Below are positions 9,001 through 12,000 of a stretch of 13,508 bases of DNA, piece after piece (the stretch's first letter is position 1; every line of letters starts with the position of its first letter). The position numbers were made by a program. The DNA comes from a virus (taxonomy: Duplodnaviria; Heunggongvirae; Uroviricota; Caudoviricetes), in the IMG/VR virus record IMGVR_UViG_2537562192_000015; one strand, given 5' to 3'.

Positions 9001-12000
9001 CTGACAGAACGGGAGATTGCTGAAGCGGAACAGGTAGCAACCATCAACGTTAAAACCGGAGAGGTGGAATCATGACAGCACAGATTGCAGCTTACGGGCG
9101 GCTGGTGGACGACCCGCAGGAAAAACAGACCAGCAAAGGAACACCAATGGCACTGGCGCGTATGGCGGTATCTTTGCCATGCAGTCAGGCACAGGACGGA
9201 CAGGCGACGTTATGGCTATCAGTCCTGGCATTTGGTAAGCAAGCCGACGCGCTGGCGAGACATGAAAAAGGCGACCTTATCAGCGTGGCGGGTAACATGC
9301 AGATCAGCCAGTGGACCGGACAGAACGGAGAAATACGGCAGGGCTGGCAGGTTATCGCTGACAGCGTAATCAGTGCCCGTTCGGCGCGTCCTGGCGGGAA
9401 GCGGGGGCAACAGGGGAAGGCGACCGAAGCACTGGAAAGAGCAAAACGACAGACCGGACAGCAGGGAAATCAGCCACCAGCGGGAGGTGATGACCCGTTC
9501 TCTGACGATATTCCGTTCTGAATGACAGGAGCACAACATGAACCAGCAGACCACACAACAGGACCAGACCACACGTAAACCATCACGGCGCATACCGTGG
9601 CAGCACATGACAAAAGAGCAACGAAAAAACCACAGACGAATAAATCGAATTGCGGAATACTGGCCTGAGCTGTTTGGGACAGAGAATATAAAACCCCTGA
9701 AGGCTGGCATAATACGTGATGTGCTTGAGGACGCTAAATCACGGGAGTTGCCACTTGCTACAGGTGTATTACGCGGCGCATTAACCTCACACCTTCACAC
9801 GACGCGATACCTTAAGGCGATTATTGCTGGTGGCCCACGGTACGACCTGAACGGGCAACCTTGCGGCGAAGTCACGGAGAAAGAGAAAGCAGCAGCCAGC
9901 GAACAACTGATGTGGAGGCTGGAGCAGATAAAACAGCAAAACATCCAGTGGCAGGATACGGGAGGTGGTGAGAGTGATAACAGACAGCGTGGCACAGAAA
10001 CTTGAGGAGCGTGGTTTATGGCGACGTGCGGCGACCCGATGCTCTGACGTCCTTCTTCACGCAGAAACGGACAGGGAGCGCGAGGAAGCTGCCAGACGTC
10101 GGGCGATATGCATCATTAAATCCCGTCGTATGCCTGAGCAGTTCGTCACCTTTGGCGATGTGAAAAAGGCCGCAGACAGAACGCTGAAAGAGATGGGGAT
10201 TAATCCGCAGGATGAATGGAAAAATTACAGCTTCAGTGATGCAGGCGACGATTTAGCGCTATCGTGATACGTATCTCATCGCCGTATTTGCTCAATTATC
10301 GCGATTCGCTATAATCACCACCGAAAGGCCGTTGATGGTGTTCTCCGCAGGCAACGGGAGCCTCGCCGAATGAAGCCAGCCAGCGGCTTTTCGGCACTCA
10401 TTTTGATGTGTACTTGTCACACACATCGGGATGAGTGAACGACGAAAACATCACGGTGATTTCGTCATGCCGCGATAAGAATGCGCCTCTTTGGGCAACT
10501 GGAGCCCTCTGTACAGCGGGTTATTGCGGCAAAGTTGTGATAAAAACGCGCCTCTTTGAGCAATTGAAGCTCACTGTAAAGCGGCTTATCACAGCAGGCT
10601 GTAACGGGCGTTCATCTTCTGGCAACTGAAGCCACCTGTACAGAGACCCGTTACGGCTGACCCTGAAGGATTTCGCCCCGTGCAATTGAAGCACCCAGCG
10701 GAGTTATTCAGGGTTTTTTATTGCCCGTCCACCAGCACCACATCTGTAGCATTGATGCGTATACATTCGCCGTCAATTGCACCGTTCCGGCCCTCACCGT
10801 CACGCACCACAACAGAATGACCAGGCAGGCCATAACGCGCCACCTTTCGACGAACACCATCACCTGTTCCCTCACGCCGCTCATACACGTTAACCCGCTC
10901 CAGAAGACCGTCACGGACCATCGCTTCAAGTGTGCGCCTTGTTGATTCGAGCTGATATCGGTTGTTGTGTGAATCTATGCCATACAGCAGGTAAGCCACA
11001 CCGGAGACATCAAACGGCGGGTTACCAATTTCACCTCTGACCCACGACAGATTGTCAGGAGTGAAGTAACTGAGGATCTCTTTTTTGTATTGCGTCAGTC
11101 TCATAGTGACCTTTCTTGTTGTAGGATGAATCCCTCATACAATAAGCCATAAGGCAAATTTTGAAAGGACAGAATCGGCGGGGTACAGATGATACGTGAT
11201 GACAAGGCTGAAGCGCTGGAGAATAGCGGCCTCTGGCGGCGTGCTGCTGAACGCTGGGGAGAATTGTTCAGACAGGCAAAAAGTGATGAAGAGAGGCACT
11301 ATATTACCCAACGAAGGGCACAATGTACGGCAAAAGCCACCAGACCAAAAACAACAGAGTGGGGGCATGTATGCGCCGTCAGGGCAGCAGCGACCAGAAC
11401 GCTTAAAGATATGGGGATTGACCAGAAAAAAGAAGATCCTTTACGGGGCACGAAGTACAGGGGTGAAACAGGGCGAAGAGACGGAAGTTAATATGGACAC
11501 AATAACTGATAAAAAAGCCGAACAACTGGAATCTCAGGGACTATGGCGAAGAGCCGCCGCTCGTTGGCTTGACGTAATGAAAGAGGCCCACACCGATCCG
11601 CAGCGAGAGCATATAGCCAGACGGCGGGAAATATGCCTTGCGAACTTCAGGATGCTGTAAATAAGACTGTTGACGATATGGGAATCAGACGGGATCGGCG
11701 ACATTACGGGTTATGGAAATAACAGCCAGGTAAATTGGTGAATATACGGCAGGCTGCAATCAGAGCCGAACATAGCGGCCTCCGTCACCATTATCAGACA
11801 GTAGCGGTAGTCCTTCCATCACAGCAAAATGCTACCCACTTCACAGCCCCTTAGAAGCCTCTTCGATGGGGTGAAAAATCCCTGAAAAAATGCGCAAAAA
11901 ACTGCGCAAATCGATCATAAAACCGATCACAAAATCGATCACACAGACCAGCAGAGCAAAGCCAGATATGACGTGGCTTGTAGGGGGAAAAGCCACCGGA

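Follow-up and report, generated by a model that had tools for sequence, protein, structure and literature searches.

Proteins with a FinO domain bind to the hairpins of terminators and help antisense RNAs to pair (PMC9977716), and STnc6030 of the Salmonella prophage BTP1 is antisense to the tailspike mRNA and mediates superinfection exclusion, with escape single-nucleotide polymorphisms concentrated within the paired region (PMC12197685). Here we describe a locus that resembles both systems. It lies in a stretch of 13,508 nucleotides from a virus assigned to Caudoviricetes (IMG/VR record IMGVR_UViG_2537562192_000015; hereafter the window, meaning the whole stretch of DNA analyzed), which is a phage satellite of the phage-inducible chromosomal island (PICI) type and is referred to as the island. 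Its subject is an array of tandem hairpin units near a gene for a ProQ/FinO-domain protein. On balance, the array probably specifies a multi-allele, FinP-like antisense RNA directed against a giant late gene of Shiga toxin (Stx)-converting phages, possibly with the aid of the ProQ/FinO-domain protein.

In architecture, FinP/FinO is the closest working analogue of the array. As in the FinOP system of F-like plasmids, a mobile element carries a FinO-domain protein gene beside a stem-loop RNA ending in a terminator hairpin, the target RNA forms a complementary hairpin, and allelic specificity resides in the RNA sequence; repression of another element's transmission genes would be a further likeness, although here that outcome is only proposed. 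However, FinP is a single two-hairpin RNA encoded opposite its own target, the traJ leader, on the same element, while the array comprises five units with several specificities per transcript and a trans target in a phage, deep inside a coding sequence (CDS). A covariance model search of both strands found no opposite-strand copy of the hairpin motif anywhere in the window. Because the complement lies in the LPD38/LPD5 CDS of Stx phages, the array is FinP-like at most and not a FinP homologue.

By comparison of targets and outcomes, the closest biological precedent is STnc6030. The array, too, shows extended complementarity, over up to 61/61 nt, to a temperate phage's late virion gene. STnc6030, however, is encoded by the phage itself as a cis-antisense RNA of 786 nt and has one specificity, whereas the array is satellite-borne and combines several alleles as ~62-nt hairpin modules copied from phages. 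At the phage site described below, phages that are otherwise ~99% identical begin to vary precisely at the hairpin, and the variation continues for ~200 nt. The C4 and P4 CI RNAs are also small structured antisense RNAs of phages or satellites, which pair at short sites and control a transcript for lytic functions; they target the transcript of their own element, whereas the array matches a gene of another one, and no sequence or covariance-model similarity was found between the array and C4 or CI.

Two further likenesses are more distant. Conceptually, a chromosomal tandem array of short phage-derived segments that specify the phages recognized recalls clustered regularly interspaced short palindromic repeats (CRISPR), but identical repeats separating unique spacers are lacking, and the units derive from one locus, each being itself a hairpin. 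Their acquisition is most simply ascribed to recombination or gene conversion, and no Cas domains were found in the larger window open reading frames (ORFs) scanned (integrase, regulators, primase, SSB, ProQ, PerC, Q), most small ORFs not having been scanned. The RNA of type III toxin-antitoxin systems (ToxI-like) also consists of tandem repeats followed by a terminator on mobile or defence-associated elements. ToxI units are near-identical, 34-36 nt long and located on the same strand directly upstream of an endoribonuclease toxin gene, in contrast to the ~62-nt, 62-79% identical units of the array, next to which stands a convergent, dispensable gene without a family match. Readings of the array as CRISPR, ToxI, a double-stranded DNA binding-site array or integron attC-like sites were rejected on architecture.

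Organization of the array

The preliminary description of this DNA had reported four tandem repeats of ~63 bp filling a 450-bp gap between convergent genes. The repeats are real, but they number five with the upstream unit u0, and the four originally recognized cover only ~250 nt, the remainder being a promoter-like element, u0 and two spacer hairpins. The features are as follows.

10288-10315, plus strand: promoter-like element TTGCTC-N16-TATAAT (-35 at 10288-10293, -10 at 10310-10315; predicted start near 10322)
10321-10394, plus strand: u0, long hairpin (covariance model match 10326-10396, E = 4.8e-15)
10395-10437, plus strand: X1, conserved spacer hairpin between u0 and u1, an inverted repeat
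10441-10466, plus strand: X2, conserved spacer hairpin between u0 and u1, an inverted repeat
10469-10530, plus strand: u1, hairpin (covariance model match, E = 9.9e-19)
10534-10595, plus strand: u2, hairpin with compensatory changes in its outer stem (C-G to U-A twice)
10597-10658, plus strand: u3, hairpin
10659-10715, plus strand: u4, hairpin with a GUGC/GCAC apical stem (covariance model match 10657-10724, E = 1.5e-14)
10714-10719, plus strand: T6 tract directly after u4, a terminator-like 3' end

A repeat search recovered a 58-nt family starting at 10474, 10539 and 10601, the second and third copies being 79% and 62% identical to the first, and the 11-nt core GCAAYTGRAGC occurs four times, at 10495, 10560, 10622 and 10682 (spacings of 65, 62 and 60 nt). 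The units abut with 1-3-nt linkers and are 62-79% identical to one another, which agrees with the earlier statement that the array is not CRISPR-like; it has no identical repeats with unique spacers. Divergence between the units is too great for Tandem Repeats Finder to report the region. The fifth unit, u0, is more diverged and lies upstream of u1, with the core GGCAACGGGAGCC and an apical GGC-AACGGGA-GCC. A covariance model built from the units scores those of the window at E = 1e-14 to 1e-18. The spacer hairpins X1 and X2 are kept across islands with G-U/G-C changes, and the interval containing them (10385-10475) has no phage match even at E = 10. The Rfam scan that had been proposed for the array was run and gave no match in 10200-11200 even at E <= 10. 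In a scan of genome contigs, GCAAYTGRAGC-N45-60-GCAAYTGRAGC was matched only by chance, in coding repeats from unrelated taxa.

The interior of u1, in the window and in the related island L008 (loci are designated by L numbers), resembles u2 (GCGCCUCUUUG...CUGUA.AGCGG) and not phage allele A1. This likeness between u1 and u2 (10469-10595; columns 214-320 of the island alignment A5) suggests gene conversion between neighboring units, which would explain the "conserved core" of the preliminary description.

RNA fold and covariation

Folding of the plus strand over 10460-10725 gives a row of four long hairpins (z = -4.84), and none of 200 shuffles folds as well; the minus strand of the same interval gives z = -2.31. 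The outer stems of the units, 8-12 bp long, differ from unit to unit and are still complementary, the pairs being CGCGAUAA/UUAUUGCG, GUGAUAA/UUAUCAC, GCUGUAACGGG/CCCGUUACGGC and ACCCUGAA/UUCAGGGU. Internal loops separate them from apical stems of 4-5 bp (GGGC/GCCC, GAGC/GCUC, UGGC/GCCA and GUGC/GCAC), which close the 7-nt loop AAYUGRA.

Covariation was assessed in a pooled set of 25 distinct sequences, comprising 8 phage alleles and 17 island units. Compensatory changes occur in 12 of the 14 consensus pairs, paired cells amount to 89.9% vs 72.9% in column shuffles, and the covariation score of 0.566 (0.240 in shuffles) is reached by 0/500 shuffles; when partners are slid as a control, pairing falls to 31-55%. 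RNAalifold applied to eight islands predicts seven hairpins in a row, with compensatory changes between orthologous units. Folding on both strands and covariation across homologous islands, checks put forward in the preliminary description, yielded long plus-strand hairpins and compensatory changes across islands. Since G-U pairs outnumber A-C mismatches in the pooled set (24 vs 5), the folded strand is the one that the island would transcribe, and this strand asymmetry, together with the compensatory changes, argues for RNA rather than double-stranded DNA sites. The earlier proposal of structured RNAs or antisense regulators therefore stands for the structured modules, given the covariation, the G-U bias and the terminator-like end, while the antisense role is plausible, a target site having been found.

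Two coding explanations were also considered and rejected. A 64-aa ORF on the plus strand does not account for the conservation, its changes between islands being mostly non-synonymous, and the minus strand encodes phage-like peptides in shifting frames with no continuous frame.

A putative single transcription unit

Two alignments of islands were used, A1 with five variants and A5 with eight variants at 92% mean column identity. The hexamers TTGCTC and TATAAT of the promoter-like element are invariant in 8/8 island variants, one A/G position varying in the spacer; the -10 hexamer is a perfect consensus and the -35 hexamer matches at 3/6 positions. At the other end, u4 is a long hairpin followed by U6, and the T6 after it is invariant across islands, although a simple terminator scan, which ignores hairpins with internal loops, does not call it. 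Units u1-u3 are without U-tracts, and the UUUU tail of u0 is sequestered in an extended basal stem, where it pairs with the upstream CCGAAAG, so that an exposed U-tract is found on the last unit, u4, only. The loss or sequestration of internal U-tracts and the exposure of the terminal one fit the need of a single read-through transcript. We infer a ~400-nt plus-strand non-coding RNA, from ~10322 to 10719, with five unit hairpins and two spacer hairpins. It may be made from its own promoter or may be the 3' end of the proQ-perC transcript. No terminator is present between the stop codon of PerC copy 1 and the RNA unit directly downstream.

The putative phage target site and its allele classes

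In a blastn search against phages, the matches of u1 and u2 (E = 6e-12) fell at one and the same place of 62 nt in 175 records of Stx-converting phages. A search of E. coli genomes matched this place in hundreds of prophages, and u0 matched a divergent prophage allele at the same phage position. The gene concerned encodes a ~2790-aa LPD38/LPD5 domain-containing polyvalent protein and is the last gene of Stx (933W-like) phages. In every case, the island plus strand corresponds to the antisense strand of this giant CDS. The protein contains the domains LPD5, LPD1, MuF_C (1748-1837) and LPD38, and the 62-nt site covers codons ~1838-1860, immediately after MuF_C. The covariance model finds exactly one site in the complete phi24B genome.

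Analysis of 69 IMG/VR loci plus prophages revealed four allele classes at the site, which differ at the protein level.

Class A: ...SRDN..GLQLP..SYRG...
Class B: ...AAEWLHAVGLQLPEANTING...
Class C: ...NPDG..GLQLP..SRQG...
Class D: ...NPDNQSAGVLQLHGDSDHQG...

Outer-stem sequences are unrelated between the classes, and all fold on the antisense strand as a 15-20-bp interrupted hairpin with a U-rich tract after it; for alleles B and D, the fold of the antisense strand is favored over that of the sense strand by 6-12 kcal/mol. Conservation of the core in phages is explained by the codons for G-L-Q-L-P, and the variable letters of the loop AAYUGRA fall, when read in the phage frame, on synonymous third positions of Leu-Gln. 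The antisense hairpin and U-tract are kept while the protein sequence changes, which suggests that the phage may have an antisense module of its own at this site, of which the island would have collected copies. A weak candidate for a phage antisense promoter, TTGCGA-N17-TATTTT, was recognized by eye with 8/12 matches, and a consensus promoter scan called no phage antisense promoter. A rare ATA codon was at first considered as support for this promoter but was discarded, since a tRNA-Ile(AUA) is encoded by the phage itself.

The giant genes of otherwise ~99% identical phages (L010/L034/L043) contain a mosaic hypervariable zone of ~200 nt at about 1740-1950 (columns 76-290 of alignment A4). It covers the C-terminal half of the MuF_C domain, and hairpin alleles are reshuffled among different flanking variants.

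Correspondence between units and phage alleles

Each unit of the array has a closest phage allele class, and the predicted net duplex energies follow the same assignment.

u0: closest to class B, 86-94% identity; -79.6 kcal/mol with B3
u1: closest to class A, 82-92% identity; -52 to -56 kcal/mol with A alleles
u2: closest to class A2, 76% identity; -25.5 kcal/mol with A2
u3: closest to class C, 68-74% identity (L034); -19.8 kcal/mol with C, other classes near 0 to -9 kcal/mol
u4: closest to class D, 75% identity, with a 21-nt exact match to D alleles; -21.9 kcal/mol with D1

Non-cognate classes score 46-69% against the units. The predicted energies are allele-specific, ranging from -20 to -82 kcal/mol for cognate pairs and from 0 to -11 kcal/mol for most off-class pairs, the largest off-class value being about -20 kcal/mol for u1 with class C. 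The correspondence extends to sub-alleles, as each island variant of u0 is closest to a different one: the window unit is 92% identical to B3, with a 27-nt exact match to phage L062, that of L006 is closest to B1 (94%) and that of L200 to B2 (92%), and the sub-alleles are interleaved between island and phage. The u1 of the window is 82% identical to phage A1. The u1 units of L006 and L007 match phage L030 perfectly over 61 nt, the identity ending precisely where the hairpin has its base, and in L221 an exact match to a phage runs over 54 nt. Pattern scans of IMG/VR for closer phage alleles matched only islands with TGAGCAAYTGRAGCTCA, which represents u2, and only islands and the known D alleles with CGTGCAAYTGRAGCAC, which represents u4.

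Co-occurrence of islands and phages

The array region is present in 113-116 of 5426 complete E. coli genomes, mostly E. coli that produce Shiga toxin (STEC). Among the 60 island genomes listed, at least 55 contain further phage-type sites, and at least one of the 5 remaining carries a C-allele phage, the giant gene being present in only 426 of the 5426 genomes overall. In five genomes, the allele of the resident phage was compared with the best island unit.

RM10042: 60/61
SMN152SH1: 54/61
95-3192: 54/61
PS2Canimalfeces12: 53/62
2014C-3338: ~73%, C-allele phage against u3

In 2014C-3338, the island u1 is a perfect match to a non-resident phage allele.

Proposed mechanism

We propose that the five hairpins are captured antisense copies, by allele class, of the same hairpin-forming 62-nt phage site. 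During late gene expression by a cognate phage, the hairpin that matches, possibly processed from the transcript, would pair with the complementary hairpin in the phage mRNA in a manner resembling FinP-traJ, and the pairing might be promoted by the FinO/ProQ-domain protein of the island. The duplex could then lead to cleavage or to blocked translation of the giant gene, through which the satellite would interfere with or tune its helper, or exclude superinfecting relatives, and tandem alleles would widen the range of phages covered. This reading is preferred over its rivals because of the hairpin covariation, the strand bias, the tracking of alleles at the nucleotide level and the single promoter-terminator frame.

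Several points weigh against it. A satellite that relies on the phage might itself be harmed by loss of a virion protein, and the target lies ~5.5 kb inside the CDS, not at the ribosome-binding site. The consensus promoter scan does not call the promoter-like element of the island, because its -35 hexamer matches only 3/6. Identity to the sampled phage alleles reaches only 68-76% for units u2-u4, and phages of the D type are absent from complete E. coli genomes and cultured phages. The island loops often read AACUGRA, whereas all sampled phages have AAUUGRA (CAA, not the synonymous CAG), which would place a C-A mismatch in the loop-loop kiss. The hypervariable zone of the phages runs ~200 nt past the hairpin, which alone does not explain it; since the zone extends so far and is mosaic, escape from pairing accounts for the phage variation only in part. 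Finally, the co-occurrence of islands and phages, though strong, is confounded by STEC phylogeny, and co-resident identities from 60/61 to ~73% bear out neither the rule that an island excludes matched phages nor the rule that it matches its helper.

More tentatively, the array might be a heritable and updatable RNA "memory" that works without Cas proteins, with captured phage antisense modules for the giant late gene, updates by gene conversion from co-resident phages, FinO-driven pairing and phages that diversify the site yet preserve its hairpin; we regard this wider idea as possible, yet doubtful.

Alternative explanations

The units could instead mimic the phage's own antisense RNA or terminator and act through their structure, titrating or recruiting an RNA-binding factor such as the island ProQ/FinO protein, the host ProQ or a phage protein. 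The hairpin matters to the phage, all of whose alleles keep it on the antisense strand together with the U-tract and covariation; moreover, the units keep it even at 68-76% identity to phage alleles, their loops differ systematically from phage loops, and a FinO-domain gene stands alongside. Such a decoy is nevertheless unlikely, as the units follow phage sub-alleles nucleotide for nucleotide, internal loops included, up to 61/61, and the retention of one copy per allele class would be left unexplained; in addition, u4 alone has the 3' U-tail typical of FinO-domain ligands, and the phage antisense promoter is not supported by the scan.

It is quite unlikely that the array has no trans function at all and consists of recombination scraps, either tolerated or serving as terminators or stabilizing hairpins at the 3' end of the proQ-perC operon. 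Random recombination would not repeatedly take the same 62-nt segment from four divergent phage lineages, whose captured copies are trimmed at the hairpin base and set head to tail, even though the co-resident pair of RM10042 (60/61) indicates that DNA exchange occurs. The position of the array, at the operon end and between convergent genes in most islands, and the terminator-like appearance of the phage elements would suit terminators; internal U-tracts have, however, been lost and the last one kept, the opposite of a terminator stack. One array (L009) has decayed, as tolerated scraps might, whereas island orthologues show compensatory changes, and the array remains 92% conserved while the flanking ProQ diverges to 59-69%.

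An explanation at the DNA level, in which the units are short patches of identity for joining or allele exchange by phage Red or RecA and could allow capsid hitch-hiking, is improbable. Perfect matches of 54-61 nt to phage DNA, the Exo/Bet/Gam functions encoded by the phage, the interleaving of sub-alleles, which implies gene conversion, and the fact that no packaging genes were seen in the window all accord with it. It would, however, predict no selection for hairpins, compensatory stems, G-U bias, an invariant promoter and a terminal U-tract; the phage's last gene would be disrupted by integration, and the majority of units, at 68-85%, have diverged too far to recombine efficiently.

The remaining proposal, a double-stranded DNA binding-site array for PerC or the 128-aa protein, which the preliminary description had offered as its alternative, is very improbable despite the regularly spaced core GCAAYTGRAGC, the palindrome CAATTG in some units and the regulator genes on both sides, since the core is the loop most tolerant of variation (AACGGGA, AACCGGA, AATTAAA and a 1-nt deletion are seen in islands), its conservation in phages is explained by the G-L-Q-L-P codons, the array persists without the 128-aa gene, and the strand-asymmetric G-U pattern and compensatory changes point to RNA.

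Neighboring genes

Three genes lie around the array.

9538-10005, plus strand: ProQ/FinO-domain gene, 155 aa, candidate RNA chaperone for the array (Pfam PF04352, E = 3.6e-23, 82 bits against a cut-off of 27)
9965-10267, plus strand: PerC copy 1 (Pfam PF06069, E = 2.4e-25; RefSeq annotation in L003)
10718-11104, minus strand: convergent gene of 128 aa, family not recognized, a non-obligatory partner of the array

The NCBIfam FinO and ProQ models match the 155-aa protein at E ~1e-14, below their cut-offs. Its gene had been placed immediately upstream of the repeats, but PerC copy 1 lies between them; its position near the array is nonetheless conserved across the island family. In L220, L221 and L223, the ProQ is only 59-69% identical to that of the window and is still followed by PerC and a complete array, so that 92% array conservation accompanies a much diverged ProQ. 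These three islands also lack the 128-aa gene and keep the whole array; the array thus goes along with proQ-perC, independently of the 128-aa gene. In a Salmonella island whose ProQ is 53% identical, no such array is present. The view of the array RNAs as candidate ligands of the ProQ/FinO protein is consistent with the ProQ-PerC-array order, kept even where ProQ is much diverged, and with u4, the sole unit with a 3' U-tail, which has the hairpin-plus-U-tail shape bound by FinO-domain proteins (PMC9977716).

The label "winged-helix-like" given earlier to the 128-aa gene could not be verified, as searches of Pfam, PHROG, NCBIfam and PDB sequences gave no match.

In L009 (E. coli SCU-171, 5984-7580), the decayed array has lost u2 and the terminal U-tract, and its u1 and u3 are fused into a chimera with arms that have ceased to pair; a restriction-modification system (dcm methylase and type II restriction enzyme) replaces the 128-aa gene and part of the array. 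Three PerC-family paralogues (9965-10267, 11189-11491 and 11493-11660) flank the array and the 128-aa gene in the window, and their copy number and integrity vary between sister islands.

The carrier island

Elements with integrase, AlpA, primase, Icd, ProQ and PerC have been classed as PICIs (PMC13612085). The present element matches this kind of satellite, a tRNA-adjacent island of ~13 kb with an integrase, a primase-replicase and regulators and without virion genes. It contains the integrase, Rha- and AntA-like regulators, a C4 RNA with Icd-like ORFs, a DUF927 primase, SSB, ProQ/FinO, the three PerC paralogues and the antiterminator Q, and an identical copy of the array occurs in the L003 island adjoining tRNA-Gly. 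Two further features of the island are listed here.

4893-4980, plus strand: C4 antisense RNA (Rfam RF01695, 72.9 bits against a gathering threshold of 45, E = 5.7e-13)
12838-13236, plus strand: antiterminator Q gene (Pfam Phage_antitermQ, E = 2.5e-50)

The C4 RNA is the only gathering-level Rfam match in the whole window. It is full-length and lies upstream of ORFs annotated by RefSeq, in sister islands, as Icd-like; the island therefore has a P1/P4-type RNA immunity module beside the hairpin array. The Q gene is the only phage-homologous DNA in the window apart from the array, with ~91% DNA identity to the Q of Stx1 and Stx2 phages over 12842-13217, a likeness that suggests possible cross-talk with the late promoter of the phages, from which stx is expressed as well.

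Tandem 12-mers, AAAAAATGCGCA (twice) and AAATCGATCACA (three times), occur at 11885-11943, with similar motifs in L221 at 4740-4800; they are iteron-like and may mark a candidate replication origin of the island. A 488-aa ORF at 3279-4745 (plus strand) has an N-terminal AntA/Ant antirepressor domain and a C-terminal segment that matches the PHROG "transcriptional repressor" phrog_6196 (E = 1.7e-34); the annotation of strain 2012EL-2448 gives its counterpart there as truncated.

Implications

Searches of the literature turned up no account of this RNA, nor of an antisense RNA that a satellite encodes against its helper phage. If the proposed action holds, the array would be, to our knowledge, the first instance of a phage satellite using RNA on its helper, and also a rare natural transcript that brings together several antisense modules, each allele-specific, to act on one viral gene. 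A function would then be provided for three things that have lacked one: the FinO/ProQ-domain genes scattered on islands and satellites, the conserved hairpin inside the giant polyvalent protein gene of Stx phages and the hypervariable patch in that gene. Should the array be a "memory" as well, satellites and helper phages would be engaged in an allele-for-allele RNA arms race. As the phages carry stx, any influence of such an element on their late expression or on their spread in STEC would bear on the epidemiology of toxin phages.

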